The notes under the pieces are model-generated. The model did not search any database. It saw nothing but the letters and a program-made list of their open reading frames with translations, and was not told where the DNA came from. A DNA stretch of 64,000 bases from Nemertoderma westbladi (Eukaryota > Animalia > Xenacoelomorpha). Of this stretch, positions 2,297 to 32,790 are shown in pieces. A program made the translations under genes and the position numbers. Within the stretch, counting starts at the first letter, position 1; every line of letters starts with the position of its first letter. The stretch is taken from contig JAUCBJ010009116.1 in NCBI GenBank assembly GCA_032718475.1, positions 62,001-126,000 on the forward strand, in the 5' to 3' direction.

Positions 2297-2348
2297 ATGT
2301 CTGTATCACACGACCTATTCTCATCCAAGGGTCTCGTTGTTCTTGCCC

Positions 2349-5695: not shown

Positions 5696-5763
5696 CTCTC
5701 TTCTGCAGATTTCGGTGGCTAGTGGTTATTGAGTTTATCTAGGGCGGCAGCTGGTTTAGTTAC

Positions 5764-6300
5764 TGTGACGGGATCCAAGAGGGATCCCGGTTTATCCGGT
5801 TTTAGTTCACGCGTCCCCGCCGTGTATAAAGAGTGAATGAGTTCTGATGTTGTTTGTCGTATATAATATGATATGCGGATATAGATATAGATATAGTATT
5901 GTCGTATATGGAAGGCGGGATACGGTAACTAAAGTCCCGGTCCTTCCCTATCTAAAACTATGTAATAACCTAAACTAGCACCGGTATTGCACTGAGATAA
6001 CTGAATTGGTATTATTACTGCCAAGTGGCTATATTGCACGGTTGGCCTTGTTACTCTACCTAATCGATGCCTTTCCCCCCTCTGATTGGTTGATACCCTT
6101 GTTGGCGCCCTTTGGAGTGTTCCCGTTCACTCCACCTATTCTCTCTGGGTTAGGGGTTTGGCCCCTGACCCTCTTTGTGTGCTTCCTTCCCACTCTTATT
6201 GGGATGGCACGAGTTGGTTAATTATCCAATCTCGTGGCTCCCAATATTGCTTATCGGCTTATAACTTTATGGGGTGTTAGCGGGATTGAATAAGCTAACA
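5764..6300 (-). repeat. 5' LTR of BEL copy 1 (537 bp)
   Basis: Reads tgtgacgggatc... to ...gctaaca on the plus strand. Both ends match the LTR at 57028-57618 (tgtgacgggatc; ccaatattgctta...actttatgggg...attgaat). Confidence 0.88.
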
Positions 6301-7054: not shown

Positions 7055-10000
7055 CTAACGTGATAATTATCATATTATTAGTAACTAATTAACAAAATGC
7101 TTAAAACTTTGCTGCTTAGTTTTATTGACAAGATAGAGCTATTCATAGATAGGGTATCTTCAACAATAACAAAATCTTACTTTCCTATCATGTATCAATT
7201 TACACTTAAAAGGTGATTAACTTAATAATAATGGTTATAAATTTTTTTATCTATATAAAAACAATAAGTATAAATGAGGATAGTAAAACCGATAGCGGTA
7301 GCAATCACTTCCACTCAATTTAATAACATAAATAATCGTATTCTATTATTAATAATATATTCTAATGAAATTCGTATTCTTACAAACTATGACCCCTCTC
7401 ACTCTCACATTAATAATAAATATAATATATACATATAAATACATTACTAGGTTATTTTTACCTAGTTACTCCCGACTATGTTAGATATTTATTTTGGAAT
7501 AATAGTTATTCTCTTGAGCAACCAGTTTCACGCGTGTGAGGACTTCAGTAACAAGTTGCTCCGTGTGACGGGGGGTGGGTGGGGGTTGTGGGGGGGGGGG
7601 GGGGGGGGGGTGGCCTATGACCAATATTACATTTAATTTAACAAAGCAACAGTCTATCTATCATAGGAATATAGGATACCGGGATACTAAATTAGGTGTG
7701 GCAATAAATAATTATTTATTGGTAAGATTAGTAAAGTAACTGTAATAAATATCGCTTAGTAAGTTACATGTACCTTCCAACAGCAATACAGATGATCTTA
7801 CGGCCAGTTCTGCAGCCAACACGTGTAAATCAAACCTCGGTGATCGTTGTCTGTCTGATGAACATTTATTGATGCCACCAGTGGCAACTACTTTGTCTGT
7901 TTTATCTCTGATTCCGCCGTGGCTGCATTTACCTAGAATGTATATATTTAATTTAGATTTGAGTGTGGATTGTTAATATGCGAATATAAAAAACAATAGT
8001 GATGGTGTATTTAATGCAGACATGTTAGGAGATATGTGGGGCGAGCCATATTTCAGGTGTAGCACACTGTCTATTTGGTTTCATTAGAAAAGCGGTATTT
8101 CTTCTGCCGGCCTGTCGGTTCATCTGTAGAGATGGAGTTGGTAAATGCCCCCCGTGTTTATAGCAAGAACTCACGGCACTAAAATAATCAGCCGTTCCGC
8201 TAGGGGCGCTAAGAACTAACCCTCATCCGTTTTATCTGGAAATTTGGGCTTCTTTATTGGTTGATTATCTTCATCCAGGCTGTTGCTATGGTAACCACTG
8301 GTTAACTTATGTCCAATGACGTTGTCGGAACAGACGTAACCGAGCAACGGTATTTCCTATAGAAGTGATAAGTAAAGAAGAAGAAAAGAAACAGCAGAAG
8401 AAATAAAGTTATTAAATTAAACAAGTTGACTGAAAGATCTTCGAATAATTCCGTATAATTCCATTATGTATAATTTCGTGCAATGAGACTAAGTCAGTAA
8501 ATGTTACAAACCTGACAATTAGAACAAGTTCTATCAGATGGGCCAGCAATGGGTTCTAAGTCTGCCTCAGAACGAGCCAGCTTCTGGTTCAGTAGCTCGC
8601 CGCCGTATAACTCAACCCAATTGGTGTGGGCGTAGAAATCCTGGGCTGTGTGTAACATGTAACCCAATAACACTCGCGCCTAATATAACACAAGTACTAT
8701 AGTAACTAGTAACTATAGTAACTAGTAACTATAACTAATAATACAATATAATATAATATGTAGCAACTATAATAAATACAACTTATCCATATTCAACTGA
8801 TATTCATCAGTGTAACAATTCCAAGTCAACTGTACATGAAACATGATAGTGTTAACGAGCTATTAAACGTCACCAAATAATATCCTCCAAATATGAATCA
8901 CTCTCGTGGGAGTTCTAACCGAAAGCTTATCACCAAAAATATTAATCCTCGTGAGTAATATAAGGTAGTAAAGAGAAGGCAGCTGCTCCCATGTGGAACG
9001 GGTTGTGTTGGACTCAATCAATGAATATATGATTCATGTTGCATTAATTATCAACAACGCTATATATCCTAATAAAATTGATGGGCCACTAAGTTGCAAC
9101 GAAATAATCCATACCTGTCGTATTGGTACAGTAGGTGATGGGTGTCTGACGCAGCCGTAATGGTTAGTTCAGTCCGAAAGGCAAATATCGGTTGATATAT
9201 AGCGGGTAGTGCCGATGCTAACTTAGTTATAACTACCGTAAGTATTTTTGAATTGAAACTATTTTACTGTTAGTATCAGTACCACGGTATTAAAATAAAC
9301 TAATCTCTTATACAACTTTCTACCGGTAACTGTTAGGTATGAAACTGAAACTAACCTTGTGGTAGAGATTACTATCTGTTAGGTATGAAACTGAAACTAA
9401 CCTCGTGGTAGAGATTACTATCTGTTAGGTATGAAACTGAAACTAACCTCGTGGTAGAGATTACTATCTGTTAGGTATGAAACTGAAACTAACCTCGTGG
9501 TAGAGATTACTATCTGTTAGGTATGAAACTGAAACTAACCTCGTGGTAGAGATTACTATCTGTTAGGTATGAAACTGAAACTAACCTCGTGGTAGAGATT
9601 ACTATCTGTTAGGTATGAAACTGAAACTAACCTCGTGGTAGAGATTACTATCTGTCAGGTATGAAACTGAAACTAACCTCGTGGTAGAGATTACTATCTG
9701 TTAGGTATGAAACTGAAACTAACCTTGTGGTAGAGATTACTATCTGTTAGGTATGAAACTGAAACTAACCTCGTGGTAGAGATTACTATCTGTTAGGTAT
9801 GAAACTGAAACTAACCTTGTGGTAGAGATTACTATCTGTTAGGTATGAAACTGAAACTAACCTCGTGGTAGAGATTACTATCTGTCAGGTATGAAACTGA
9901 AACTAACCTCGTGGTAGAGATTACTATCTGTTAGGTATGAAACTGAAACTAACCTCGTGGTAGAGATTACTATCTGTTAGGTATGAAACTGAAACTAACC

Positions 10001-13000
10001 TCATGGTAGAGATTACTATCTGTTAGGTATGAAACTGAAACTAACCTCATGGTAGAGATTACTATCTGTTAGGTATGAAACTGAAACTAACCTCGTGGTA
10101 GAGATTACTATCTGTTAGGTATGAAACTGAAACTAACCTCGTGGTAGAGATTACTATCTGTTAGGTATGAAACTGAAACTAACCTCGTGGTAGAGATTAC
10201 TATCTGTTAGGTATGAAACTGAAACTAACCTCGTGGTAGAGATTACTATCTGTTAGGTATGAAACTGAAACTAACCTCGTGGTAGAGATTACTATCTGTT
10301 AGGTATGAAACTGAAACTAACCTCATGGTAGAGATTACTATCTGTTAGGTATGAAACTGAAACTAACCTCGTGGTAGAGATTACTATCTGTTAGGTATGA
10401 AACTGAAACTAACCTCGTGGTAGAGATTACTATCTGTTAGGTATGAAACTGAAACTAACCTCGTGGTAGAGATTACTATCTGTTAGGTATGAAACTGAAA
10501 CTAACCTCATGGTAGAGATTACTATCTGTTAGGTATGAAACTGAAACTAACCTCGTGGTAGAGATTACTATCTGTTAGGTATGAAACTGAAACTAACCTC
10601 GTGGTAGAGATTACTATCTGTTAGGTATGAAACTGAAACTAACCTCGTGGTAGAGATTACTATCTGTCAGGTATGAAACTGAAACTAACCTCGTGGTAGA
10701 GATTACTATCTGTTAGGTATGAAACTGAAACTAACCTCATGGTAGAGATTACTATCTGTTAGGTATGAAACTGAAACTAACCTCGTGGTAGAGATTACTA
10801 TCTGTTAGGTATGAAACTGAAACTAACCTCGTGGTAGAGATTACTATCTGTTAGGTATGAAACTGAAACTAACCTCGTGGTAGAGATTACTATCTGTTAG
10901 GTATGAAACTGAAACTAACCTCATGGTAGAGATTACTATCTGTTAGGTATGAAACTGAAACTAACCTCGTGGTAGAGATTACTATCTGTTAGGTATGAAA
11001 CTGAAACTAACCTCGTGGTAGAGATTACTATCTGTCAGGTATGAAACTGAAACTAACCTCGTGGTAGAGATTACTATCTGTTAGGTATGAAACTGAAACT
11101 AACCTCATGGTAGAGATTACTATCTGTTAGGTATGAAACTGAAACTAACCTCGTGGTAGAGATTACTATCTGTTAGGTATGAAACTGAAACTAACCTCGT
11201 GGTAGAGATTACTATCTGTTAGGTATGAAACTGAAACTAACCTCATGGTAGAGATTACTATCTGTTAGGTATGAAACTGAAACTAACCTCGTGGTAGAGA
11301 TTACTATCTGTTAGGTATGAAACTGAAACTAACCTCGTGGTAGAGATTACTATCTGTTAGGTATGAAACTGAAACTAACCTCGTGGTAGAGATTACTATC
11401 TGTTAGGTATGAAACTGAAACTAACCTCGTGGTAGAGATTACTATCTGTTAGGTATGAAACTGAAACTAACCTCGTGGTAGAGATTACTATCTGTTAGGT
11501 ATGAAACTGAAACTAACCTCATGGTAGAGATTACTATCTGTTAGGTATGAAACTGAAACTAACCTCGTGGTAGAGATTACTATCTGTTAGGTATGAAACT
11601 GAAACTAACCTCGTGGTAGAGATTACTATCTGTTAGGTATGAAACTGAAACTAACCTCGTGGTAGAGATTACTATCTGTTAGGTATGAAACTGAAACTAA
11701 CCTCATGGTAGAGATTACTATCTGTTAGGTATGAAACTGAAACTAACCTCGTGGTAGAGATTACTATCTGTTAGGTATGAAACTGAAACTAACCTCGTGG
11801 TAGAGATTACTATCTGTTAGGTATGAAACTGAAACTAACCTCGTGGTAGAGATTACTATCTGTCAGGTATGAAACTGAAACTAACCTCGTGGTAGAGATT
11901 ACTATCTGTTAGGTATGAAACTGAAACTAACCTCATGGTAGAGATTACTATCTGTTAGGTATGAAACTGAAACTAACCTCGTGGTAGAGATTACTATCTG
12001 TTAGGTATGAAACTGAAACTAACCTCGTGGTAGAGATTACTATCTGTTAGGTATGAAACTGAAACTAACCTCGTGGTAGAGATTACTATCTGTTAGGTAT
12101 GAAACTGAAACTAACCTCATGGTAGAGATTACTATCTGTTAGGTATGAAACTGAAACTAACCTCGTGGTAGAGATTACTATCTGTTAGGTATGAAACTGA
12201 AACTAACCTCGTGGTAGAGATTACTATCTGTCAGGTATGAAACTGAAACTAACCTCGTGGTAGAGATTACTATCTGTTAGGTATGAAACTGAAACTAACC
12301 TCATGGTAGAGATTACTATCTGTTAGGTATGAAACTGAAACTAACCTCATGGTAGAGATTACTATCTGTTAGGTCTAATATTCGTAGTTTCGACCTCTGA
12401 ATTCCGAGTTGAGCCTCTGATATCCGTTCGGAATCGAAATGTAAATCTGCTCGACTTGCAAACCTGTAAGAATAATTTGTAGTACCGGTACACAGTAGGC
12501 CTAATTATTTACTGTTGTATAGTGATAGCCCGATAGGCCTATTTTTTAAATATATTTTTAAACAAAAAATCGTACAAATCTTTAAAATATGAGGCGGGAT
12601 TGTTGTATAATAAGTGTAACTCGTAGAAACCTATTTTTATACCCAGTAGTGCAGTCTGTGGTGAGATGAACCGTTTATTTATGTTGCAAGCGGAACAAAG
12701 CGAGCAGGTTTTTTTCCCATTGTCAATATCGTATTTGGGAGTACGGGGTCATTTTTTGTGGAATTTTTTTTTTGCTGATTTATTTTTTAAGGGGGTTGAA
12801 ATTGCTACATGGCCCGGTTCGATTCGGAGGTTTTCCATTACTTACTAATTTAGTTCAACTAATAACCTCTTACATTAAATAGACTCTATATTGTTTATTT
12901 GTTAATTTGTTCGTTAATTATTTTTTGAAAGGTGATAATGAATATGAGCTAATTTGAAACGAATTTGTAGATTATTTCACCAAACACAACAGAATATGGA

Positions 13001-14997
13001 ACACCAGGAGGATACATTGAGTGAAGAAAGTCCAGAACATAATAATATATTGAGCAGGTGAGTGAACCGCTATGGAACACCAAATCCGAACAAATCAGTA
13101 TTGATTATTATTGTAGAATAATATTTTCAAATTAGCTTAAATTCACGCTACTTATGCATGGTTTATAAAGTTATCTTGTAGCAATAAATTATTATAGGTG
13201 ATCATTACATTGGTTGTGTATCCATATCACCATTGGCCTCTACGATGGTGTTTATTGAACGTTCCATATATTCAGCATTGTGGCTCGCCCCATAGTAAGC
13301 GCGGAACAGTTGTGTGGGTGATTGGTACGGATGGAGGGTAGATAGATTGGGTATCAGTTGGTGCCGACCTGGGTGGTCTAGGAAGTACGACTCAGCCGTG
13401 TCAATAATAGCTCTTCTGGTTATTGTTCTGCAGAAAATATTACATAATTTATATAATGCAGGTGGCTGCTGTACCTACAGTATAGCACATAAAGAAAATT
13501 GTACCAGTACATACTGATTCTGTTTGTAGACTAACTAAGCGAAAACAATAGAGGGAACACCTCCTAAATACCAGTTCATTCCTATTCGCAAGTCCTGTGT
13601 CCTTCAGCAGGCCTTCGAAGAAAGACATGGGTTCGATCCTCACATGGGCCAGGGCAGTTTCGGCACGAATGCTTTAAAGGGACCAGCCAGGGTGCATCTC
13701 TGCCTTGCATCCTTAAGTGCTAGCTAAATGAGTACTGGAGTTTCCTCTGGGGAGTAAAGTTCTGGGGGGACCGCACTGGAAATAAGTCGTCAGATGCGTA
13801 ATCTCATTAGCAGTCAGCTCTACCACGGAGAGGGTTGTTTACAGATTTGTGTGTGTGCATCGGCTACGATACTCTCTCGCCTCTCGCTGGTCTAGAATGC
13901 TTCGGTCTACCAAGAGGATCTACCTCAGATTCCGTTGTTTCATATAAACAGCTCTATTTGCAGCTGACTTTATATATTTCTCAAAGTCGTTAATTTCATC
14001 ATTTATTTAGGCTGGAGTATCTATTTGAAACCTCCAACGTAAATTTCTTCTTTTTAATTGGGTTTTTCAAGTAGACCTCTCATTACGTGGGGTGGATTTT
14101 TTTAAGGAGACCATTGTTGGCATCAAGTCTTAATTTGTTCCGTCCCAAAACCTGACTATGATCAGTCTGAAATTTGGGGCGAGCCACGAAAGTAAGCGAG
14201 CTTAGCGTACGGGTACCACTATCTCAATCGGTATGTCTGTCGTTCCGTTGTTCTGTCGTTCTGTTGTGTTTAATTTTAAGCGTTAATAACTCAGCCAAAT
14301 GTTAAAGAAATCTATCCAAACTTGGTACACATGTAGTCTGGCAAAAGTTTATAAATTTTCTAATTTGAATTTCCGTGTGGCCTTCGAGAAGCTAAGATAA
14401 TAGAAGTTAATTATTTAATTAAGTTGATTACGGTAAAAACAGCATTTTCAACCTGCTTCTTAAATGATATTAATTATTTTCTAGTATAAGATTTAAATAA
14501 TTATACTTAAAAATTATACAACTGTATTCCCCATACCCCATTCCATCACAGTTTTTAATTGCTTTAAGAAATGTGTTTTTAATTGATCTAAACGTAATTA
14601 ACTTATTAAAATACCCCGTCTCCAGCTGTAGCTACTATTGTACTACACTAAGTATAGTTCGCCTTGTTTCGTACAGTTTAACAAATAGAGTTTCTGGTTA
14701 ATTAATAATAATTTATTCTGGTGAAATCGTTTCACAATATTTATCACAACATTGAGGGACCTATAACATTTAGCAGCAGTGTACCGTATTATTTTGTAAC
14801 TAAAATATAATATTGATTCCTAATTAAATAAATAACATCTAACGTTGATAAATAACTTCCAATTTGTGGTTTACGTACTTGTGGCTGTAACTCATCTCTG
14901 TTGATGAATCACCCAAAATTGTATTGGGCATAAAACCGGAAGTTCTAGAACAATAAAAACTCATAATGGTAGCCAAAATTAACACAAAATTGCACAT
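6845..14997 (-). CDS. VWA7: von Willebrand factor A domain-containing protein 7-like, 5' part. Exons: 14879-14997, 13209-13427, 12346-12463, 8512-8679, 8221-8356, 7774-7932, 6845-7054; continues beyond the left edge
   Basis: Signal peptide MCNFVLILATIMSF, then motifs SHKTIT, LFRAYYG, HFDSE, LHTAQDFYAHTNWVEL, LTSGY, GKCSHGG, GGINK, the MIDAS-like DTTGSM and VPFGDP. All introns are GT-AG and phases are consistent (2,2,0,0,1,1,1). Confidence 0.9.
7774..7932 (-). CDS. VWA7: VWA7-like coding exon 6
   Basis: Encodes KCSHGGIRD...GGINK...SPRFDLHVLAAELA; 159 nt, phase 1-1. Confidence 0.9.
8221..8356 (-). CDS. VWA7: VWA7-like coding exon 5
   Basis: Encodes CSDNVIGHKLTSGY...KKP; 136 nt, phase 0-1. Confidence 0.88.
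8512..8679 (-). CDS. VWA7: VWA7-like coding exon 4
   Basis: Encodes ARVLLGYMLHTAQDFYAHTNWVEL...TCSNCQ; 168 nt, phase 0-0. Confidence 0.92.
9330..12374. repeat. 46-bp tandem array (~66 units) made from the VWA7-like exon 3 splice-donor junction
   Basis: The minus-strand unit is CCTAACAGATAGTAATCTCTACCACGAG|gttagtttcagtttcata. The terminal unit is the end of exon 12346-12463. Confidence 0.97.
12346..12463 (-). CDS. VWA7: VWA7-like coding exon 3
   Basis: ttacag|G TTT GCA...; encodes DLHFDSERI...LDLTDSNLYHE|gttagt; 118 nt, phase 2-0. Confidence 0.9.
13209..13427 (-). CDS. VWA7: VWA7-like coding exon 2
   Basis: ctgcag|A ACA ATA ACC...; encodes TITRRAI...LFRAYYG...EANGDMD; 219 nt, phase 2-2. Confidence 0.88.
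13585..13950 (+). mobile_element. tRNA-derived SINE-like element (degenerate)
   Basis: Pol III B-box GGTTCGATCC at ~13630, followed by a core (gctttaaa...taaatgagtac...ggggagtaaag) that resembles the SINE at 32430-32790. The ends are approximate. Confidence 0.55.
14170..14400 (+). mobile_element. Putative Helentron-associated (DINE-1/HINE-like) fragment
   Basis: gcgagc...gcgagc start, a (gtctgtc/gttctgt)-type microsatellite, and aataactc...aaacttggtacacatg motifs typical of such elements. Recognised by motif only. Confidence 0.4.
14879..14997 (-). CDS. VWA7: VWA7-like first coding exon (signal peptide)
   Basis: Acceptor ttttattttgaag at 15012, ATG at 14997, donor gtacgt at 14878; encodes MCNFVLILATIMSFYCSRTSGFMPN. 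Confidence 0.82.
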
Positions 14998-17015
14998 GAC
15001 TCCAGACAGACCTTCAAAATAAAACAAATAGTACAGTAAACTTCTCTAAGTTTCTGTGTAGCGAATTAATATGATATTGACTGAACAATTTATAATCGTG
15101 AATAATTTGAATAAAAAATATACGTAAGAAATTGGTTGGTATTATAGTGGTTTAAGTTGCGGACAATAATATGAATTCGGTCTTTACAAACTTGTCCTAG
15201 TTACAACAGAGTCGTTGTAAATACTTGAAAGACCCCCAGTAGAGTTATAAGTGTAACATCCATTGAAGTTAATTCCAATACCCTCTTTCTATTGAGTGAG
15301 ATTGTATTGGCAGTAAGGAGAGCAACCGGCCCAGACACCAACTAGAAACATTAAACAACATCTGATACCGGAAGTGACAGAATAAAAAAAAATACATTGG
15401 CCTACTGTTTGTTCCAGCCCATCACAGACTCTATGTATACAGTTACTATGCAAGTTGATACCATCTGAAGTCGTAGTGGTTAAAATTTTTGTGTTTTTTC
15501 TCTGTGACCTAAAGATGTAGCAATAAATGTAAGCCATTCGTTATTGAAAATCGTGCGCTTAAATAAAATGCAACTTACGACACAATGTGCTAATGTGCAC
15601 AATTATTGTTGCTACAGGTGAATGAACTCGCTTACGAGTCATTCAGTAGAGGAATGTCATTGTCTCTTATGATAGCATGTATGTAAGAGCGAGAATTTTA
15701 GTTAAAGTTAAGATCAATTGAGGCAAAACCATAACATCCAATCCATTGTCAATTAAACCTAAAATAAATTAAATTAACATGACAACAATAGTTACCATGA
15801 CAACAACAGAATACATTTAATTGAACATTTGGTCATCGATTAAACAGAGATGAACTCCGTAAGAATGAGAATAACGCAACAATATGGTAGGGAAAGTGAG
15901 ATACAGTTGTTACAACCCTTAATGTAGTCGGTAATACCAGTAAATAAATTCAGTTTAATGTTAACAAGTTGAAACATTTTACTTGCGTAGAAATTTAGTA
16001 GAATTGATTATTACGAAGGTTAATTAATTAAGCATAGTAGACGGGTTATTGTATTTTTATTGGATACCCTTGACCCAGCTGTGGGTGTATGTAAAGCTGC
16101 TATTTCCTTATCCACCGTAGCCAAAATATCTGCGGGAAGTCCATTTTGATATCAAAACAATAAAGTTTGAACAATAATTTGTTTTATTAATATTAGATAT
16201 CGATTGGGCCGGTGTGATCCGTAAATTCCGACGCGTTTGTGTTTGCGTAGGTTATCCGTAACTGACGGGTGATGGATTGTAATGTCATCGAAACAGGTGA
16301 AATTTAAGCAATAAGTCGCATAGCTTATTGCTTAAGCTTTTCAACTTTCGACTTGTGTCGCATTGCCTCCTACCGCTCAGAACAAGTAAACTGATACAAA
16401 TAAACTCGCATTCAATCCTATTTAATTCAGTTAGGTTGGGATGGACATTCACAGGAAAATAATGTTTATCTGGGAAGTTATTATAGACAAACATTATTAT
16501 AGACAAACATTTTTTGAATTTCTTATTATTGTAAAACTCGATAATAATACTGTATTGTAATTATTATAAACATTTACTTATATTCTATTTGTCAAATTCT
16601 TACGATATTGTGATTTATTAACGAACTATTTTGTTTCCAATTTTATAAATTAGTTGAATGTAGGAAGCTTGTAATACATAGAACACATGAGATTAGCTGG
16701 ACTCCACCATGCGTATCAATGGGCGTGTAATCACAATTCATTAAATTTACATAGCAACAATAAACCATTGATTTAGGAAATTATTTTCCTTGGGTGAGAG
16801 CAATTTAATGCTGGTTACATGGCATTGACGGCACTTCGGATTGACATGTTATTATTACCTGGTTATTTTTTATTAGAAAGTCGAATTCTGTTTAAATAAG
16901 TTAGACATGGTTCTGAAATAACTCATTTAATATTTGTTTACCAAATTCTTTTGTCAGTATATTTATATATATACAGTATATATATCTATAATGTGGTTGG
17001 AGGTTAACAGTTATG

Positions 17016-17320
17016 TAGGACAATTTGCCCCCTGAGGACAACCGCCACCGGACAATTGCCTTCTGATATCTTTTTTTTAACCTTTAATATGTATATATAT
17101 CAGCATAAATATAGACTATACAGCTTATACACCTCCACCGCGTCCTACCTACACCAATATCGTTGCCAGGCAATACATTAGGTTAATAATTAGATTAACA
17201 GTTAGGTTAGTAGTTAGGTTAATAATTAGGTTAATAGTTTGGTTGACAGTTAGGTTAACGGTTAGGTTAACAGCTATGTTAACAGTTAGGTTAACGGTTA
17301 AGTTAACAGTTAAGTTATTG
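17016..17320. repeat. Degenerate transposon-end remnant plus a 12-bp (ggttaacagtta)n repeat
   Basis: ggacaattgcc-like triplet at 17018-17060 (similar in style to the ggacacttcccc arms). ttaggttaacag repeats at 17178-17318. Confidence 0.4.
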
Positions 17321-17603
17321 TCAGTTTATATTTATAATATACGGTCAATTATTTATATTATATTATATTATATTATATTTAGTTTAAATATTGTTATTTT
17401 ATATATTAAATAAGTATATTTATATTTACTAAATAATAATTATGTATTAATAATATTATTTGATAAATAATTGACCTGGGATAATTAATTTTATTTAATG
17501 TGCGACATTTTTACTGTATCATGATTTGAGTAAACCAACGCCCCCATGTGGCCGATAGCGGGACTGTGATTTATAACTTCCGAGACTGAATCTATAAGAC
17601 ACA

Positions 17604-17761
17604 ATGTCTATCACAGCTGTAGCAATCTCTGCAATGAGACAGAAGCAGAACGAACTGGACGGTGGTAAAGATTATAGACGCGCCAGTCGGTTGAGTAGGG
17701 CGGGTGCTACTACAGGGGGATCCTTACAGGCCAATGGGATGGGTGTAACTAGTGATAGAAA
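17604..17761 (+). CDS. stum: stum-like exon 1
   Basis: ATG at 17604 with TATA-like ttataa at ~17571; encodes MSITAVAISAMRQKQ...GMGVTSDR, then aa|gtaagt. Confidence 0.7.
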
Positions 17762-20700
17762 GTAAGTGTTACAGTGGGAACCTTACAGGCCTATGGGATG
17801 AGTGTAACTGGTGATAGAAAGTAAGTGTTACAGGGGGAACCTTACAGGCCAATGGGATGAGTGTAACTGGTGATAGAAAGTAAGTGTTACAGGGGGGAAC
17901 CTTACAGGCCAATGGATGAGTGTAACTGGTGATAGAAAGTAAGTGTTACAGGGGGAACCTTACAGTGGGAACCTTACAGGCCAATGGGATGGGTGTAACT
18001 AGTGATAGAAAGTAAGTGTTACAGGGGGAACCTTACAGGCCAATGGGATGAGTCCTACTGGTGATAGAAAGTAAGTGTTACAGGGGGAACCTTACAGTGG
18101 GAACCTTACAGGCCAATGGGATGGGTGTAACGGGTGAAAGAAAGTAAGTGTTACAGGGGGAACCTTACAGGCCAATGGGATGAGTGTAACTGGTGATAGA
18201 AAGTAAGTGTTACATGGGGAACCTTACAGGCCAATGGGATGAGTTCAACTGGTGATAGAAAGTAAGTGTTACAGGGGGAACCTTACAGTGGGAACCTTAC
18301 AGGCCAATGGGATGGTTGTAACGGGTGAAAGAAAGTAAGTGTTACAGGGGGAACCTTACAGGCCAATGGGATGAGTGTAACTGGTGATAGAAAGTAAGTG
18401 TTACAGGGGGAACCTTACAGGCCAATGGGATGAGTCCAACTGGTGATAGAAAGTAAGTGTTACAGGGGGGAACCTTACAGGCCAATGGGATGAGTGTAAC
18501 TGGTGATAGAAAGTAAGTGTTACAGGGGGAACCTTACAGGCCAATGGGATGAGTGTAACTGGTGATAGAAAGTAAGTGTTACAGGGGGGAACCTTACAGG
18601 CCTATGGGATGAGTGTAACGGGTGATAGAAAGTAAGTGTTACAGGGGAACCTTACAGGCCAATGGGATGAGTGTAACGGGTGATAGAAAGTAAGTGTTAC
18701 AGGGGGAACCTTACAGGCCAATGGGATGAGTGTAACTGGTGATAGAAAGTAAGTGTTACAGGGGGAACCTTACAGTGGGAACCTTACAGGCCAATGGGAT
18801 GGGTGTAACTAGTGATAGAAAGTAAGTGTTACAGGGGGAACCTTACAGGCCAATGGGAGGAGTGTAACTGGTGATAGAAAGTAAGTGTTACAGGGGAACC
18901 TTACAGGCCAATGGGATGAGTGTAACGGGTGATAGAAAGTAAGTGTTACAGGGGGACCTTACAGGCCAATGGGATGAGTGTAACGGGTGATAGAAAGTAA
19001 GTGTTACAGGGGGAACCTTACAGGCCAATGGGATGAGTGTAACTAGTGATAGAAAGTAAGTGTTACAGGGGGAACCTTACAGGCCAATGGGATGACTGTA
19101 ACTGGTGATAGAAAGTAAGTGTTACAGGGGGAACCTTACAGTGGGAACCTTACAGGCCAATGGGATGGGTGTAACTAGTGATAGAAAGTAAGTGTTACAG
19201 GGGGAACCTTACAGGCCAATGGGAGGAGTGTAACTGGTGATAGAAAGTAAGTGTTACAGGGGAACCTTACAGGCCAATGGGATGAGTGTAACGGGTGATA
19301 GAAAGTAAGTGTTACAGGGGGAACCTTACAGTGGGAACCTTACAGGCCAATGGGATGGGTGTAACTAGTGATAGAAAGTAAGTGTTACAGGGGGATCCTT
19401 ACAGGCCAATGGGATGAGTGTAACTGGTGATAGAAAGTAAGTGTTACAGGGGGAACCTTACAGTGGGAACCTTACAGGCCAATGGGATGAGTGTAACTGG
19501 TGATAGAAAGTAAGTGTTACAGGGGGAACCTTACAGGCCAATGGGATGAGTGTAACTGGTGATAGAAAGTAAGTGTTACAGGGGGAACCTTACAGTGGGA
19601 ACCTTACAGGCCAATGGGATGGGTGTAACTAGTGATAGAAAGTAAGTGTTACAGGGGGAACCTTACAGGCCAATGGGATGAGTCCAACTGGTGATAGAAA
19701 GTAAGTGTTACAGGGGGAACCTTACAGGCCAATGGGATGAGTGTAACTGGTGATAGAAAGTAAGTGTTACAGGGGGAACCTTACAGTGGGAACCTTACAG
19801 GCCAATGGGATGGGTGTAACTAGTGATAGAAAGTAAGTGTTACAGGGGGGAACCTTACAGGCCAATGGGATGAGTGTAACTGGTGATAGAAAGTAAGTGT
19901 TACAGGGGAAACCTTACAGGCCTATGGGATGAGTGTAACTGGTGATAGAAAGTAAGTGTTACAGGGGGGAACCTTACAGGCCTATGGGATGAGTCCCATT
20001 GTAGACGCTGTAGTGTGGGACCTTTACAATATATATTTATTTCCATACAGACGCAACAGTGTGGGACCTTTACCATATATATTTATTTCCCTACAGACCC
20101 AGCAGTGTGGGACCTTTACCAGATATATTTATTTCCATACAGACCCAGTAGTGTGGGACCTTTACCATATATATTTATTTCCCTACAGACGCAGCAGTGT
20201 GGGACCTTTACCAGATATATTTATTTCCCTACAGACCCAGTAGTGTGGGACCTTTACCATATATATTTATTTCCCTACAGACGCAGCAGTGTGGGACGAC
20301 CTTTACCATATATATTTAATTCCCTACAGACGCAGCAGTGTGGGACCCAATGTAGTTATATCTGAAGCAAACGATATTGATGGACGCAAAGCATCCACAT
20401 ACTCATCAGGTATTAAAGATATTACATAATTTTATTATTATATTATATTATATTACATTATTTTACATAATTTTACATAATTTTATTATTATATTACATT
20501 ATTTTATTTTATTATTATATTATATGACATTATTTTATTATTATATTATATGACATTATGTTATTATTATATTATATTACATTATTTTATTTTATTATTA
20601 TATTATATGACATTATTTTATTATTATATTATATGACATTATTTTATTATTATATTATATGACATTATTTTATTATTATATTATATTACATTATTTTATT

Positions 20701-23700: not shown

Positions 23701-26700
23701 ATATTACATTATTTTATTTTATTATTATATTATATGACATTATTTTTTCATTATATTATATTACATTATGTTATTATTATATTATATGACATTATTTTAT
23801 TATTATATTATATTACATTATTTTATTATTATATTATATGACATTATTTTATTATTATATTATATGACATTATTTTATTATTATTATAAGGTTAAACAGA
23901 GTGTCTATTTTACCAGTATTATTCTTAGTTTCACTTTCAATTCCACAAAATTGCCTTTCTTCTCTTCCCCGCGCCATATAAACTTCGATTCCAGGTAGTA
24001 GCGGTAGAGTCAGCGTGTCTGATAGTGCCAGTATGACTAAACACCATAAATTCAATGAATTACTGTATACTTATGTAATGCGGAGAGCTGTTATACAGCA
24101 GTATTAGCACACGGTACATGAATGTCAACCATTTTTAGTAATATAATTTAACTGATTATTATCCATCAAATGTATTTAATAGTAATAAATTGGTTAAAAA
24201 GTTGACTTTGAATATAAAATATATTTTTTAAATACATTATAGGCTGTATTTCTCTTCTGTTTAGAGATTTATTAGCAAGTCGTTAGACTTGATTACTGTA
24301 AGAAAAAAAAGCTACTGACTACTGGCTACTGACTACTGGCTACTGACTACTGGCTACTGACTACTGGCTACTGACTACTGGCTACTGGCTACTGACTACT
24401 GGCTACTGACTACTGGCTACTGACTACTGGCTACTGGCTACTGGCTACTGGCTACTGGCTACTGGCTACTGACTACTGGCTACTGGCTACTGACTACTAG
24501 CTACTGACTACTGACTACTACCTACCAAACTGACCTAGAGCATAAACGGCGCTTACGATTATGATGAAATTTTGCATGAAACATGAAAATAGATTTCTAT
24601 GGGTTCTTGTGAAATCGCAGATTCGCAAATTTAAATTTAAACATCTCAACTTGTTTTATTTCGAAAAATAGCCCCAAAACACGAAAATTGAGATAGGAGC
24701 AATGATAAAAACACCAACTGGCACTCATGAAAAATGTATAGAGATGGCCTGGTAATGCATTCAATAGGGGCCAACTAACAAAAAAGTACTTTATGTGTCA
24801 AGTATTATCACTCTACTCTATAACCTAGACAGTAAGCAAACATTAACTGTCTCAGCTGAATAACTCTTCCCAATGCATCCTATGGGAAAATATACAATGT
24901 TACTCACTCTGCTATGTTAATTAATGGCAGTGATTTTTTATGTCAATTTATTTGACTTTTTTTGTCACTTTTTTTTTACGAATTATGCATAATGACTTTT
25001 GTTGTCCATTTAATGACTTTTATTGTCACTTTTTATGTATGTATTTCTTCAAACTGTCAGACTGCTGATTTCTGGACTGTCAGACAGTTGATTTCACTAT
25101 GCCTGTGCCAAAACATTCCATGATTCCATGATTTATAGACTATGAGATAGATTTCCATATGCGCCTGTGGTAAAAAGACTCTATATTTAATAGTTTGTGG
25201 TTGTTGTCGATAATCGATTACCACATGACGTAGCAAAACACTCATTTTATAGCCAAAAACAATTACCAATTGATGGAAAGGAGCTGGTTAAGGCCGAGTT
25301 TTCTAACCAAAACAATAAACAGTCACTTTACCAAATCAGGGAAAGGAGCAGGTTACAGAGACGGGATTTTCTAACCAAAACAATAAACGATCATTTAACT
25401 AATTGAGGGAAAGGAGCAGGTTACAGAGACGGGATTTTCTAACCAAAACAATAAACGATAACATTACCAATTGAGAGAAAGGAGCAGCTTACAGAGGCGG
25501 GATTTTCTAACCAAAACAATAAACGATAACATTACCAATTGAGGGAAAGGAGCAGGTTACAGAGGCGGGATTTCCTAACCAAAACAATAAACGATCACTT
25601 AAACTAATTGAGGGAAAGGAGCAGGTTACAGAGGCGGGATTTTCTAACAAAACAATAAACAGTCACTTTACCAAATCAGGGAAAGGAGCAGGTTACAGAG
25701 ACGGGATTTTCTAACCAAAACAATAAACGATCATTTAACTAATTGAGGGAAAGGAGCAGGTTACAGAGACGGGATTTTCTAACCAAAACAATAAACGATC
25801 ATTTAACTAATTGAGGGAAAGGGGCAGGTTACAGAGGCGGGCCTTCTGTGCTGTTGGAAGTAGTGGAGCCGCTATCCGTAACACTACTCAGACAGTAGTC
25901 ATGATCCATTATTGATTATAAAACTAATACAGTAAGGCCTAAATTATGTGAAAGGTATATCCACATTTTCCACAATCCTGCAATCCAGTTTCGCCTATCA
26001 ATTATTTAAAATTTATTAGCACAACCGGTAGGCCTACCATTACCGTATTTAAATGGTAGGCTACACAGTAGGCCTATAGCAGTACCAGTGCCGGTACCGG
26101 TACTAAAATACAGAAATACCTGCTTTATACCTACATCTGTACATACAATACAGCAAAATAGTGCTATATATACTGTATACTAACCGGTACTGATAGCCTG
26201 AGAGAACAGCAGTAGAGAAACCGGTAGCATGGAACCTAACATTAGACTTTTGGATGACATAAAAAATCAAAAAAAATTGACAAAAAAAGGATAAAAATGG
26301 ACAATAAAAATTATTGCGTTAATTAATTGGCGTGCAAGCTAAATGACTGTTAGTTACACAGTGTGTTGGCTACACAGTGTATTGTACTATGCTCTCATCG
26401 CATTATTGTTTTATTTTTAAATCTTTGTGCCAACATTAATACCGTGGAGGCTGTATGCCCATAAAGCTGAATGTTTACTCAGCCTCATGATTCTCCATAA
26501 GGCTAACATTATGAAATATGTTTGAAATATAAAAATCTGTTATAATAATAATATAATTGTTGTATTTAATTAATATCGTGGTTTACATTGAACAGTGTAA
26601 ATTGTTATTCGTGGTTTACATCTCAACTAACTTGTTTTATTTATTGCAAGCCGGCACAGCATTCTTAAAAATGCAGCTGCAATGCAGCATGCCGATCCTA

Positions 26701-29700
26701 GTAGTATTTATTGCAAAAATATACGGAAGCCCATAGCGGCCAGGACTCAAACATTAATGTGGGACACAAACATTAATGAGGGACACATTAATGAGGGACA
26801 CAAACATTAATGAGGGTCATAAACATTAATGGGGGACACAAACATTAATGAGGGACACAAACATTAATGAGGGACACAAACATTAATCAGGGACACACAT
26901 TAATAAGGGGTACAAACATTAATGAGGGACACAAACATTAATGAGGGACACAAACATTAATCAGGGACACACATTAATAAGGTACACAAACATTAATGAG
27001 GGACACAAACATTAATCAGGGACACACATTAATAAGGGGTACAAACATTAATGAGGGACACAAACATTAATGAGGGACACAAACATTACTCAGGGACACA
27101 CATTAATAAGGTACACAAACATTAATGAGGGACACAAACATTAATGATGGACACAAACATTAATGAGGGACACAAACATTAATTAGGGACACAAACATTA
27201 ATTAGGGACACAAACATTAATTAGGGCACAAACATTAATTAGGGACACAAACATTAATTAGGGATACAAACATTAATAAGGTACACAAACATTAATGAGG
27301 GACACAAACATTAATGAGGGACACAAACATTAATGAGGGACACATATTAATGAGGGACACAAACATTAATGAGGGACACACATTAATGAGGGACACAAAC
27401 GTTAATGAGGGACACAAACATTAATGAGGGACACAATCATTAATGAGGGACACAAACATTAATGAGTGACACAAACATTATTGGGGGACACAAACATTAA
27501 TGAGGGACACAAACATTAATGAGGGACACACATTAATGAGGGACACAAACATTAATGAGGTACACAAACATTAATGAGTGACACCTTAATAATTTGTCTG
27601 CCTAGGGGCCACACATATGCTTACAAACCCTTACTCATATATTTACTTAAAGTATAAAAACCTTTCAAATCACACATACAGACATATGCTTACAAGTTTA
27701 CAAGTTCCATCACAGAAACTTATACCACAAATGCATCAAAACTATTTCTACCTCACCTGATTTATATTGAACTAGAAAGCCTGTGGCCCTTCGGGCCACA
27801 GCTTTCTAGTGCACGTCAGATGATATATGAATGGATCTAGGACACTTCCCCCCCGGACACTTCCCCCCCGCCCAAGTAGGACACTTCCCCCCCGGACACT
27901 TCCCCCCCGGACACTTGCCCCCCGGACACTTCCCCCCCAGTTAAAGTGTTAAAATTAATCTGGGTGCATCAAAGCAATAAACAAAAGTTAAAGATGGTTA
28001 CAGGACAAGTTGTATCTAGACAAGTTTTTTCAAAATTATAAAAGAAACATTTTTATAGTCAAATTTTGTTTGTTTTTCTTTTAATTCCTTTAATTCTTTT
28101 AATTTATTTTAATTGGGGGCTGCCGCCCCCAAACCCTCGCATCTTTTCTTGGGGGTTATCGCCCCCAGACCCCGGCATTTCCCTGAGTGCCCGTTGAAAT
28201 AATTAATTCATGTTTGTATCATCAGATAATAAATTGACTAAGCCTAAAGTAGGAGCTGTATTGAATGTTAACCAATTTAATATATAAATTACTACAATAT
28301 TATATAATTCAACAAAATCCTATTAAAAATATTGCAAGTAACCAGGAAATTTAATATGTAGTGTGTATAATATCTATATAGTATGTATAGTATGTATAGT
28401 AGTAATATATATATCAATATGTAATGCTGAACACAGAATACAGGTCGACGCATGTCGATTTTACCCTGGAGAGGTGTAATTTTAATTGCAACAATAATAT
28501 TCATCCCCATCTGCTACAATTTGAAGAAGACTATTACATAATAATACCTATAATTAAAACAATTAATTATTATGATTCTATAGTTAATAAAAACAGTATA
28601 TCATTCCGGGGATGGAATTTATAGGTCATCTAATATAATTAATTGTTTAAAGATTAGCAAACAATACGATGTAATTGCATTGATAAAACCCATAAATAAA
28701 ACTTGGATATAAAATGTAAAATCGGGATGCAAAAGATCACTTTCTGAGCTACGAAAGGAAAATTGGATACAACTTATCTGGATACAAGCGGTCCGTTTAC
28801 CTTACAAAATGAAAAATACGAATGTGCGAAGTTAAGATCAGTCGGGGGGGAAGTGTCCGCGGGGGGGAAGTGTCTGGGGGGGAAGTGTCCGGGGGGGAAG
28901 TGTCCTACTTGAGCGGGGGGGAACTGTCCGGGGGGGAAGTGTCCGGGGGGGAAGTGTCCGAACACCATATGAATATGTGCGGGATGTGAGGGAATATCCC
29001 TCATTAATGTTTGTGTCCCTCATTAATGTTTGTGTCCCTCATTAATGTTTGTGTCCCTCATTAATGTTTGTCTCCCTCATTAATGTTTGTGTCCCCCAAT
29101 AATGTTTGTGTCCCTCATTAATGTTTGTGTCCCTCATTAATGTGCCCCTCATTAATGTTTGTGTCCCACATTAATGTTTGTGTCCCTCATTAATGTGTGT
29201 CCCTCATTAATGTGTGTCCCTCATTAATGTTTGTGTCCCTCATTAATGTTTGTCTCCCTCATTAATGTTTGTGTCCCTCATTAATGTTTGTGTCCCTCAT
29301 TAATGTTTGTCTCCCTCATTAATGTTTGTGTCCCTCATTAATGTGTGTCCCTCATTAATGTGTGTCCCACATTAATGTTTGTGTCCCCCATTAATGTTTG
29401 TGTCCCTCATTAATGTTTGTGTCCCTCATTAATGTTTGTGTCCCCCATTAATGTTTGTTTCCCTCATTAATGTGCCCCTCATTAATGTTTGTGTCCCACA
29501 TTAATGTTTGTGTCCCTCATTAATGTGTGTCCCTCATTAATGTGTGTCCCACATTAATGTTTGTGTCCCCCATTAATGTTTGTATCCCTCATTAATGTTT
29601 GTGTCCATCATTAATGTGCCCCTCATTAATGTTTGTGTCCCACATTAATGTTTGAGTCCTGGCCGCTATGGGCTCCCGTAAAAATAAGAACGAATTTGTC

Positions 29701-32200
29701 TTATCACTTCTTGTGCGCGATTGTATTGAATTCATGACAACTGCTGTTATTATTATTAATCAATTGACACCTCGACTCCTCTCTGAGACTCCGACTACTC
29801 TATCCGATAGAATAAAATAGTCATTTCGCTAACTGCTCTCTATCTTCTATAATCACAACAGCTTTTATAATTCATTAGATGATTACAACATAATAATTAT
29901 AGTTTGAAGTTGTCTAGAAAATTTATCGTACACCACCGGGACTAACCTCACACTAATCCCTTTCTAGTCAATAAATAAAAATATGTCATCATTATTGTAT
30001 TATGGGAGATTATGGGAAATAACACCGATATCAATTACGTCGTCTCTAATCAATATTATAAATGTTTTTATTCTGTTTTTTTTGCAAACAATACTGTCGT
30101 GTGCTCATTATAGTAAGTTGCATGCTCATTGCTCATTATAGTAAGTTGCGTGCTCAAAATAGTAAGTTGGGTGCTCATTATAGTAAGTTGCATGCTCATT
30201 GCTCATTATAGTAAGTTGCGTGCTCAAAATAGTAAGTTGCGTGCTCATTATAGTAAGTTTGTGTAGACTAACAAAAAATGGATCCGGGTCTCGCAACTAA
30301 TTTACCTAATTTTTCTTTCTTTTTTTAACAGGTACTAGAAAGGTGTCGATAACATCAGCGGATATCCGAAATTACATGAAGAATGTTCGCCAAGCGAAAC
30401 AGCGCCAGTCAATGCAGTTGGCGCTGGATCAGGCGGCTCAACAAGAGCGACAGGACCACTTTATGGCTATGCCGGCTTGCAAGTTTCCTGTCGCCGTATT
30501 GTGTTGTGTTATGAATGTAATAGTCCCAGGGTTGGGTAAGTACTGAATGTAACAGGTTGTTACTAGTTGAACTTCTGTTTTATTGTGTACGTCTACTCGA
30601 AATTATCTAATATTTCAGGCAAGAAGTACCTCCCTAAAGCCCTGTTCACATCCAACGGTGCGTGAGCGGTAAAGTAGTCTAGCGGTATTGAAGCGGTAAG
30701 CCAGCGGTACACTACCCAGAGCCCGTTCACACCCAACGGTACCGTTGCGGTAACTGATTGTTTATCTGTCGACTGTGTCGATTACATTAATTGTTTTAAC
30801 ATTGTTTAAATGGGCTGCGGTAAACCGCGCGGTTTAGCGTACAACTACGTACCTGTTGGGTCGTTCACAGTCAGCGGTGTACCGTTCCGTTGGATGTGAA
30901 CGGGCCTTTAAGGAAGGATGAATTGATGAGTTGACGTAATGAATATAAATTTATAGTTTTAATTTAGTTTCTTATCAATTTAAGGAAAGGAATAGGTATC
31001 AGTGACAGGCTATTCTAACTAAAAGCAGGAGTCAATAACACAGGAGAACATGTTCCTTCTTATCTTATTTAATAAATCTAATAAAGTTTCACTCCAATTT
31101 AAAATATGATGACTCATTGGGTATTTTTTTCTAACAATTTAACATTACCACTGTGATGTAGACGTTACAACTCTAGACAAGTGACTTTACACGTCCGGGG
31201 GGGCCTTCGCGCAGCAAAAATTAGCAAAAATTTAGGTCATGAATCGGTATTAATCATAAAATACATTTTAATATGAATAAATTTTTCAGGAACTGTAGTA
31301 TCTGGTTTCACCCTTCTCTGTGGATCCAGTGGTAATAAAAAGAAATACGACCACGCTATGAAGCAAGTGCTGGCCAACGTGTTTATAGGTCTCAGTATGT
31401 TCTTTACAGTAACGTTCTTCTTGGTTGGCTGGATATGGAGCATCGTATGGGGATACCAATTGGTATCATTCGCCAGTAAGTATTTATTTATATTGGATAC
31501 CAATTGGTATCATTCGCCAGTAAGTGTTTATTTATATTGGATACCAATTGGTATCATTCGCCAGTAAGTATTTATTTATATTGGATACCAATTGGTATCA
31601 TTCGCCAGTAAGTATTTATTTATATTGGATACCAATTGGTATCATTCGCCAGTAAGTGTTTATTTATATTGGATACCAATTGGTATCATTCGCCAGTAAG
31701 TGTTTATTTATATTGGATACCAATTGGTATCATTCGCCAGTAAGTGTTTATTTATATTGGATACCAATTGGTATCATTCGCCAGTAAGTGTTTATTTATA
31801 TTGGATACCAATTGGTATCATTCGCCAGTAAGTGTTTATTTATTTATATTGGATACCAATTACCTAAATTCCTAAATTTGTACACTACCCGGTTAAAAAG
31901 TACGCATGTGATGGGATTAGTCCTACAATTGCGCCAATAAAAGATAAGTTATTTTCGGTAAAATAAACTTATCATTCGAGGTTAAGACCCCTAGATCCCT
32001 TCCTATAATAAATGCATAAGAAACATGTAAGAAATGTGATTAAATTGACATGGAAAGGAGTCAATGCAAACAGAATGGAAAAGGGGCTAGTTTTATACTT
32101 AGTGCAATAACAATTAATGAATCGCCCCATTTTTATTTCATTTACAGAAGAACACCAGAAAATTGAGGATAGAAAACAGTTAAAGAATCTACTTGCTTGA
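17604..32200 (+). CDS. stum: Protein stum homolog / SPEC3-family small membrane protein (~238 aa). Exons: 17604-17761, 20330-20409, 23995-24030, 30332-30535, 31290-31475, 32148-32200
   Basis: The C-terminal domain (AMPACKFPVAVLCCVMNVIVPGLGTVVSG...NVFIGLSMFFTVTFFLVGWIWSIVWG) matches the stum/SPEC3 signature. Exon lengths sum to 717 nt with consistent phases (2,1,1,1,1), GT-AG introns and TGA at 32198-32200. Exons 1-3 are inferred from splice signals and phase only. Confidence 0.8.
17711..19995. repeat. 59-bp (variant 73-bp) tandem array (~36 units) made from the stum exon 1 splice-donor junction
   Basis: The unit is TACAGGGGGAACCTTACAGGCCAATGGGATGAGTGTAACTGGTGATAGAAA|gtaagtgt. The first unit is the 3' end of exon 1. 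The longer variants carry a 14-bp internal duplication, tgggaaccttacag. Confidence 0.96.
20003..20347. repeat. 46-bp tandem array (7 acceptors) made from the stum exon 2 splice-acceptor junction
   Basis: The unit is tttaccatatatatttatttccctacag|ACGCAGCAGTGTGGGACC. AGs end at 20050, 20096, 20142, 20188, 20234, 20280 and 20329. Confidence 0.93.
20330..20409 (+). CDS. stum: stum-like exon 2
   Basis: ctacag|A CGC AGC AGT...TCA TCA G|gtatt; encodes RSSVGPNVVISEANDIDGRKASTYSS; 80 nt, supplying the phase 2->1 change needed to join exon 1 to the downstream exons. Confidence 0.72.
20421..22182. repeat. AT-rich minisatellite (~26-bp units, tattatatgacattattttatt-like)
   Basis: gac/tac anchors at ~26-bp spacing (e.g. 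20609, 20635, 20661). It resumes at 23640-23888 after the LINE fragment. Confidence 0.92.
22183..23640 (+). mobile_element. CRE-like non-LTR retrotransposon fragment (RT C-terminus, CCHC zinc finger, restriction-like endonuclease), degenerate
   Basis: Motifs GYNPEPAKS, GGFIG, YPQSA, LPARHGGIGI, LSAEEFKDNLALRYG, HALSCNSGGLVVKRHDEV, RADLVARGFW...FDV, KKRHY and FTPVVVSTDG. It has frameshifts and an internal 63-bp duplication. Confidence 0.8.
23640..23888. repeat. Continuation of the AT-rich minisatellite
   Basis: Same units as 20421-22182. Confidence 0.9.
23995..24030 (+). CDS. stum: stum-like exon 3 (36-nt symmetric microexon, possibly optional)
   Basis: Pyrimidine tract...ttccag|GT AGT AGC GGT AGA GTC AGC GTG TCT GAT AGT GCC A|gtatga; phase 1-1. 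Confidence 0.55.
24311..24520. repeat. 7/14-bp microsatellite (gctactg/actactg)n
   Basis: Directly visible. Confidence 0.95.
25240..25840. repeat. ~68-bp tandem repeat (~9 units)
   Basis: gagggaaaggagcaggttacagagacgggattttctaaccaaaacaataaacg recurs, e.g. caataaacga at 25381 and 25449. Confidence 0.92.
26722..29680. mobile_element. Non-autonomous foldback-type DNA transposon with TACGG...CCGTA ends and a 6-bp TSD (IS3EU-like); arms made of inverted 19-bp minisatellite
   Basis: TIR TACGG(A/G)AGCCCATAGCGGCCAGGACTCAAACATTAATG at both ends; aaaata on both flanks (26716-26721, 29681-29686). (cattaatgagggacacaaa)n at 26748-27582 and its reverse complement at 28997-29654. Confidence 0.85.
27833..28966. 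mobile_element. Non-autonomous Mutator-like element with C/G-run tandem-repeat TIRs (copy A), nested in the IS3EU-like element
   Basis: GGATCTAGGACAC...GTGTCCGAACACC ends; (ggacacttccccccc)n arms inverted at the two ends; 8-bp TSD atatgaat; near-identical to 34201-35418. Confidence 0.88.
30100..30259. repeat. 21-bp tandem repeat (~7 units) just upstream of stum exon 4
   Basis: gtgctcattatagtaagttgc repeated. Confidence 0.9.
30332..30535 (+). CDS. stum: stum-like exon 4
   Basis: ttttttaacag|GT ACT AGA...GGG TTG G|gtaag; ends AMPACKFPVAVLCCVMNVIVPGL; 204 nt. Confidence 0.9.
30637..30908. mobile_element. ~270-bp MITE
   Basis: TIRs aagccctgttcacatccaacgg / ccgttggatgtgaacgggcctt, flanked by TA on both sides; internal TIR-like subrepeats. 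Confidence 0.8.
31290..31475 (+). CDS. stum: stum-like exon 5
   Basis: tttttcag|GA ACT GTA...; encodes TVVSGFTLLC...VGWIWSIVWGYQLVSFA, then a|gtaagt; 186 nt. Confidence 0.92.
31451..31861. repeat. 44-bp tandem array (9 donors) made from the stum exon 5 splice-donor junction
   Basis: The unit is GGATACCAATTGGTATCATTCGCCA|gtaagt(a/g)tttatttatatt. GT at 31476, 31520, 31564 ... 31828. Confidence 0.96.
32148..32200 (+). CDS. stum: stum-like last coding exon
   Basis: tttcatttacag|AA GAA CAC...CTT GCT TGA; encodes KEHQKIEDRKQLKNLLA*. Confidence 0.8.
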
Positions 32201-32429: not shown

Positions 32430-32790
32430 AGCCAAGGAATGCCTGTTCACCACCATGGGTGATCTTCCACAGTAAACCCTTCCACTCTGTTTCCTAAAGG
32501 AATGCCTGTTCACCACCGTGGGTGATCTTCCACAGTAAACCTTTCCACTCTGTTTCCTAAAGGAATGCCTGTTCACCACCGTGGGTGATCTTCCACAGTA
32601 AACCTTTCCACTCTGTTTCCCAAGTTGCCTTGGTTCCCATTTATCGACCACTGAAGAATGAAAGCCGGGGTTGGGCTAGGCTGCAGCATTTAAAGCACTG
32701 TTGCCCAAACAGTGCTGCCCCATCTAGGGATCGAACCAGGGCTCCCTAATTGGAAGCCCAGGAATTTCACCACTAGACCAAGCTGCTGCC
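32430..32790 (-). mobile_element. tRNA-derived SINE with a triplicated 63-bp 3' segment
   Basis: On the minus strand: A-box TGGTCTAGTGG and B-box GGTTCGATCC in a tRNA-like head (32717-32790), then a non-tRNA body and three 63-bp repeats (32434-32620). Confidence 0.75.

Follow-up and report, generated by a model that had tools for sequence, protein, structure and literature searches.

In two neighbouring genes of Nemertoderma westbladi, a VWA7-like gene and stum, four exon edges have been copied head-to-tail together with their splice signals, in 7 to 65 extra copies, into the adjoining introns. The four arrays responsible lie within the window (by which we mean the whole 64-kb stretch of DNA that was analysed), have unrelated sequences with units of 46, 59, 46 and 44 bp, and each span one splice site. 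In our judgement they are probably 'mirage'-type minisatellites that arose when an exon edge was duplicated in tandem, expanded by unequal exchange, and are tolerated by means of splicing at the exon-side site. The arrays, designated A1 to A4, were called by running Tandem Repeats Finder (TRF) on the window and were then read unit by unit:

9330..12374, minus strand: A1, at the VWA7 exon-3 donor (TRF, 46 bp x 66.2, 98%)
17711..19994, plus strand: A2, at the stum exon-1 donor (TRF, 59/73-bp units)
20003..20347, plus strand: A3, at the stum exon-2 acceptor (TRF, 46 bp x 7.4), adjoining the end of A2
31451..31861, plus strand: A4, at the last stum donor (exon 4 in the RNA-supported form; TRF, 44 bp x 9.2)

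This reading bore out a preliminary description of the stretch, made from the sequence alone, which had reported four unrelated arrays with these unit lengths at splice junctions. The copy counts given there (~66, ~36, 7 and 9) correspond, respectively, to 66 donor motifs, 36 donor motifs, 7 decoy acceptors and 9 donors, and the claim that the exon-side terminal unit is the real coding edge also held, with such units found at the exon ends of VWA7 exon 3 and of stum exons 1, 2 and 4. In all four arrays one unit spans the exon–intron boundary. In A1, where each unit comprises 28 exon and 18 intron nucleotides, the donor motifs are the real VWA7 exon-3 donor plus 65 decoys; four variants can be told apart among the 65 intronic units (43, 13, 6 and 3 units), and a block of 26 units has been duplicated, such that units 27–52 match units 1–26 with one difference. 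A2 is built of units of 58–60 and 73 bp, with 51 exon and 8 intron nucleotides per 59-bp unit and an extra 14-nucleotide internal copy in 9 of the 35 full units; its motifs are the real stum donor plus 35 decoys. A3 consists of 46-bp units, one of them 49 bp long, each with 28 intron and 18 exon nucleotides, and places its decoy AG acceptors upstream of the real acceptor at 20329/20330. The donors of A4 are the real one and eight decoys (25 exon and 19 intron nucleotides per unit). The decoy GT or AG signals are near intact in all units, which amounts to 65, 35, 7 and 8 decoy sites in A1 to A4, respectively. The duplicated block of A1 is a sign of VNTR-type turnover, and the boundary unit of A2, with three differences from the majority unit, stands partly outside such turnover. 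The unit of A4, alone among the four, begins with a perfect 16-bp palindrome (31452–31467), and the tail of that array ends just beyond the palindrome centre.

The minus-strand gene was assigned by a profile search, in which it matched Pfam VWA7_N with an E value of 3.9e-16. A HMMER search gave 106 matches to the VWA7-like protein; the best local matches are 26–42% identical and include frog, brachiopod, lancelet, echidna and turtle proteins that bear the name VWA7, and identity to a Branchiostoma lanceolatum relative is 31%. Word-index protein searches with single exons gave no match. The exons of this gene are as follows:

14879..14997, minus strand: VWA7 exon 1 (model), aligns to VWA7 relatives
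13209..13427, minus strand: VWA7 exon 2 (model), aligned with VWA7 relatives
12346..12463, minus strand: VWA7 exon 3, placed by frame and by a conserved 37-residue spacing; its last 28 nucleotides are the first A1 unit
8512..8679, minus strand: VWA7 exon 4, with the Pfam VWA7_N match (E = 3.9e-16)

Use of the exon-side donor of A1 keeps the frame and leaves 37 residues between two conserved motifs. We examined 106 relatives for this spacing; the pattern matched 61, of which 45 have the same spacing and the other 16 gave 12–62 residues. As judged from protein spacing only, the working donor of VWA7 exon 3 would be the exon-side site.

The plus-strand gene is stum/Spec3 (Pfam Spec3/stum, E = 1.4e-16). 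Its transcript could be followed in two sequencing runs, X5 and X4, which come from two studies (P3 and P2) and are not recorded as RNA; we recognised them as transcriptomes by their spliced contigs. The supported coding exons are:

17604..17761, plus strand: stum coding exon 1, left by an X5 contig at 17761; its last 51 nucleotides are the first A2 unit
20330..20409, plus strand: stum exon 2 (80 nucleotides), placed by X5 contig arithmetic and a loose end; its first 18 nucleotides are the last A3 unit
30332..30535, plus strand: stum exon 3 (RNA-supported form), in X5 and X4
31290..31475, plus strand: stum exon 4 (RNA-supported form), with Pfam Spec3, in X5 and X4; its last 25 nucleotides are the first A4 unit
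32148..32200, plus strand: stum last coding exon, whose first 30 letters are read by X5 and X4 loose ends behind 31475

An X5 contig of 1083 letters (depth 175.5) covers 17494–17761 and leaves the genomic sequence at the first A2 donor. We take it to be the same contig as the one at exons 3 and 4, which has the same length and depth. What is then left for exon 2 is 77 + 3 = 80 letters, exactly the length counted from the exon-side A3 acceptor, and the X5 loose end reads the end of stum exon 2. Further downstream, contigs of both X5 and X4 join 30535 to 31290 over a GT..AG intron and run from 31475, the first A4 donor, directly into the last stum exon. These findings demonstrate that the exon-side site is used at A2 and A3 (X5) and at A4 (X5 and X4) in the majority form of the RNA; note that assembled contigs show majority forms, such that rare decoy-spliced forms would drop out. 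For the majority form at the three stum arrays, they uphold the earlier proposal that the working junctions are intact and that the exon-proximal site is chosen. The VWA7 exons, exon 3 included, lie outside the X5 contigs, which speaks neither for nor against the modelled VWA7 sites. With five coding exons, the supported transcript encodes 226 residues and places A4 at the exon-4 donor; the preliminary description had numbered this exon as the fifth. A candidate stum exon of 36 nucleotides at 23995–24030, in frame and with AG/GT ends, is skipped in the X5 contig and is possibly alternative. At the 5′ end of the gene, 548 bases of the leader (16946–17493) are absent from the X5 contig and lack GT..AG ends; since part of this stretch is high-copy, it is probably an insertion allele. 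Beyond the stum stop lies a 63-bp repeat in three copies (32434–32620), and the X5 contig ends about where this repeat begins. In a metagenome scan for stum relatives, none of 347 candidate stretches was confirmed.

The preliminary description knew of no general system of this kind. Such repeats have, however, been described both in lancelets and in human genes. In lancelets, 'mirage' minisatellites are reported in Adh3, BflGb6 and BflGb9 (PMC3087553) and in PGBD5 and troponin C (PMC3902484); according to the accessible portion of the former paper, Adh3 units measure 10–72 bp and show somatic instability, splicing is undisturbed, the generating mechanism is called unclear, and the boundary units differ from the majority and are partly excluded from homogenisation. 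The arrays described here resemble the mirages, as far as the available text of those sources describes them, in having a boundary-spanning unit, in occurring on donor and acceptor sides, in carrying GT or AG in the units, in normal splicing, in boundary units that stand partly outside homogenisation, and in a unit size within the reported 10–160 bp. They differ in reaching 66 and 36 copies, compared with three to six in the globins, in forming one intron of abutting donor and acceptor arrays, and in belonging to a different animal, and the likeness is a structural one of class that implies no sequence kinship. Among human genes, boundary-spanning VNTRs are known in F7 (intron 7, 37 bp), 6-16, CBS, LMNB2 and PDGF (PMC1557585), and for F7 work with 50 constructs found that the most upstream donor wins. 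As in this group, at least in the sections of that paper open to us, the first unit of our donor-side arrays spans the junction, identical pseudo-donors follow it, and the most upstream donor is used, although in 6-16 and CBS two pseudo-sites close by are used as well. Unlike the human cases covered there, which are single donor-side arrays with 5–26 sites, the window holds four arrays in two neighbouring genes, one of them on the acceptor side. Repeats at human segmental-duplication boundaries likewise place minisatellite units at exon–intron boundaries, but often alter gene structure or make introns (PMC2812944, from the part available), whereas in our case the majority form of the stum transcript keeps its structure; the accessible part of PMC10078293 holds nothing on boundary-spanning units. 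All four arrays show the mirage features examined, namely a boundary-spanning unit, repeated GT or AG, and turnover, and splicing is undisturbed at the three stum arrays. They are thus likely a dense example of a repeat class already described rather than a new system.

The account we favor, that of mirage-type minisatellites tolerated through exon-side splicing, can be set out in steps. A duplication of 44–59 bp would have been seeded across a junction, in a genome that makes such repeats freely and whose introns are short when repeats and elements are set aside. The array would then have grown by block duplication, a pattern that is visible in the units and whose mechanism is presumably unequal exchange. 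Since every unit holds just a fragment of the exon, a complete exon adjoins the terminal unit alone. The site nearest to the exon body is the one chosen in the majority RNA, perhaps, given the work on F7, through exon definition or upstream scanning. Rare use of a decoy would mostly lead to a premature stop and to degradation of the RNA. The arrays would be tolerated through splicing at the exon-side site, as observed at the three stum arrays and as protein spacing suggests for VWA7. As regards the initial seeding, we sought a common motif among the four units and found none shared. We also considered a common hairpin seed and rejected it, since folding z scores for A1 to A4 were +0.1, −0.7, +0.5 and −1.2 against 60 shuffles each, that is, nothing unusual between −1.2 and +0.5.

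VWA7 and stum together have 19 junctions in the window, rather than the approximately 25 counted previously, and four of these have an array. As a null we used the introns after collapsing the arrays and taking out elements, with lengths estimated by eye aided by depth (~6.3 kb over nine introns), under which a 44–60-bp seed overlaps a junction with a probability of 0.09–0.15 per array. Among 7–9 intronic arrays, four overlap a junction where 0.65–1.3 would be expected, a 3–6-fold excess (P = 0.002–0.03, uncorrected); if A2 and A3 are counted as one event, given that both lie in the same tiny intron, P is 0.02–0.05. The count of seven takes intronic arrays with units of at least 26 bp outside elements and the count of nine adds two 19-bp arrays, whereas arrays with 7- and 12-bp units, the 63-bp array past the stop, the 41- and 86-bp arrays and arrays inside LTR elements were left out. 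Two more arrays, non-overlapping, start or end 10 and 73 nucleotides from a junction; in total TRF gave 98 rows in the window, and the 68-, 70-, 63-, 41- and 86-bp units span no modelled junction. With four of 7–9 arrays on junctions and two more so close by, purely random seeding fits the window poorly. The test is nevertheless post hoc and concerns one window selected from a scan of ~250,000. We therefore speak of a modest excess at junctions, seen locally in this window; the earlier phrase 'far more than random' captured the direction of the effect but was too strong for uncorrected P values of 0.002–0.05.

A possible explanation for this excess is a mutational bias in the lineage, by which tandem duplications start more readily at exon edges, for example owing to a composition step, polymerase pausing or break repair there. 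The size of the local excess speaks for such a bias, as do the occurrence of arrays on donors as well as on an acceptor, across two genes, the two further arrays near junctions, and a GC content of 45% in exons versus 33% in sampled intron sequence. However, the excess was computed post hoc from a handful of arrays in one chosen window with collapsed lengths judged by eye, it weakens when A2 and A3 are treated as one event, and the four units have neither a seed motif nor a hairpin in common. We consider a seeding bias unlikely on balance, while still giving it appreciable weight, and hold equally tentatively the broader statement that exon edges are seeded several-fold more often than the rest of introns, with whole introns reassembled out of their own duplicated splice sites. 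In the open-access literature we found no genome-wide enrichment test for junction-spanning arrays.

Splicing at a decoy would have different consequences in different arrays. All 35 A2 decoys lie behind an in-frame stop and read through it after residue 53, all seven A3 decoys give a stop at 70–172 residues, and the A1 decoys (four computed) meet two stops that lie in the first intronic unit. Because decoys in A1 to A3 give premature stops, the absence of such forms from the RNA could reflect NMD rather than site choice. On this question A4 is more telling than A1 to A3. Splicing at either of the first two A4 decoys would place the stop within the last exon, and at the third it would fall 40 nucleotides before the last junction. 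Junction-dependent NMD follows a 50–55-nucleotide rule, the force of which may differ in this animal, and from these stop positions RNAs spliced at the first three A4 decoys would likely escape it. The depth of the X5 and X4 contigs over the A4 decoy units is 0 at 31497–31560.

These observations bear on the suggestion, made in the preliminary description, that the arrays are kept for a function, with copy number tuning productive versus NMD-bound splicing or with decoys soaking up U1 snRNP or U2AF. Nearly intact decoy signals in all units would be expected on that account, the premature stops given by the A1, A2 and A3 decoys are what a tuner would need, and the human 6-16 and CBS cases use the second and third donor (PMC1557585, in the portion available). 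Intact signals nevertheless follow from young, homogenised arrays, the A4 decoys are uncovered in the X5 and X4 contigs even though their products would likely escape NMD, and the F7 pseudo-sites did not compete, as reported in the accessible portion of the same paper. Neither the window nor the contigs lent support to sinks or to tuning; we regard a retained function as improbable and arrays without function as the most likely case.

Intron 1 of stum (17762–20329, ~2.6 kb) consists almost entirely of A2 and, after ~10 non-array bases, A3, and thus presents 36 donors and then 8 acceptors, of which the outermost pair is spliced in assembled RNA. A2 terminates in a small fold-back formed from its final bases. 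An intron of this composition, together with proposals that introns can be gained from such repeats (PMC3087553 and PMC2812944, in the parts available), raises the idea that intron 1 is a young intron made by duplication (Rogers-type gain). That idea predicts one unit family at both ends, with a single unit supplying the two, whereas here each array gives one used end and the donor and the acceptor belong to unrelated units; since each unit brings its own AT-rich or signal-bearing intron part, the arrangement fits a pre-existing short intron. An origin of the units from junction-containing DNA circles found no support either, nor did splicing-coupled slippage, both of which had been raised earlier: nothing in the window points to circles, and the arrays show ordinary VNTR turnover. 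Both the young intron and the circles are very improbable.

Window DNA was found in three DNA runs (X1, X2 and X3) from two samples and two studies, in which A1, A2 and A4 are multi-copy by contig stops and a rise in depth. Unique contigs end inside the first unit of A1 at 12345 (X1, X3) and 12319 (X2), of A2 at 17741 (X1) and 17750 (X2), and of A4 at 31480 (X1, X2). Depth in the array relative to the flank, which for short-read contigs is not a copy number, was 727/26 (X1), 170/30 (X2) and 276/13 (X3) for A1, 271/33 (X1) and 371–839/39 (X2) for A4, and 172/23 (X1) and 46 versus 5–13 (X3) for A2; the A2 bin in X2 showed no rise (15 versus 29), even though the X2 contig breaks off there within the first unit. 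The long contigs of X1 show no differences, and this run may have been the source of the assembly, which leaves S2 as the independent sample. An origin of the arrays in faulty assembly, or a misidentification of the junctions, is scarcely credible and already largely refuted: although the check in DNA runs covers A1, A2 and A4, copy numbers rest on short reads and assembly, X1 may be the assembly's own source, and the VWA7 site rests on protein spacing with RNA cover on the stum side, the units vary in patterned ways, contigs stop in the first unit with a many-fold rise in depth in two samples, and spliced contigs use the stum junctions.

The window is rich in other repeats. An AT-rich array with 26/31-bp units (20419–23884) starts 10 nucleotides past the stum exon-2 donor and is split by a GC-richer insert of 1.46 kb (22180–23641), which by eye resembles a decayed non-LTR element and has a 183-residue frame without a Pfam match. 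A composite element at 26743–29659 has inverted 19-bp arrays around a 1.1-kb unit with inverted 15-bp terminal repeats, and this inner unit recurs at 34208–35412. Very high-copy dispersed intronic repeats, with summed depth up to thousands of times that of the flanks, lie at 13628–13794, 14175–14592 and 30617–30910, the last of them MITE-like with inverted ends. A 41-bp satellite of ~416 copies (35806–52775; 97% matches; 100-N gap at 38732–38831), with a diverged partial copy near 53290–53350, has a pyrimidine run and AG in each unit on the plus strand, and no gene was found there. A minus-strand exon with an ankyrin repeat (53885–54166; Pfam Ank, E = 1.1e-4) has an apparent acceptor ~45 nucleotides from the end of an 86-bp array (54218–57027). 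Two LTR retrotransposon copies of BEL/Pao type, related to each other and with their frames interrupted, occupy 57030–64000 and 1–6265 (minus strand), and each contains a small tandem array (74 bp and 60 bp); the right-hand copy has Peptidase_A17, integrase and DUF1759.

Our findings add four clean cases, one of them acceptor-side, to a named but little-studied class of repeat, and bring RNA support beyond lancelets and mammals. Intron 1 of stum is a ready-made test of splice-site choice, with 288 possible donor–acceptor pairs of which the farthest-apart pair is used. If the excess at junctions holds genome-wide, exon edges would be hot spots of tandem duplication, which would bear on intron growth and intron gain; exon–intron architecture would then leave a genome-wide mutational footprint, and the arrays would provide a natural library for tests of exon definition in an invertebrate.
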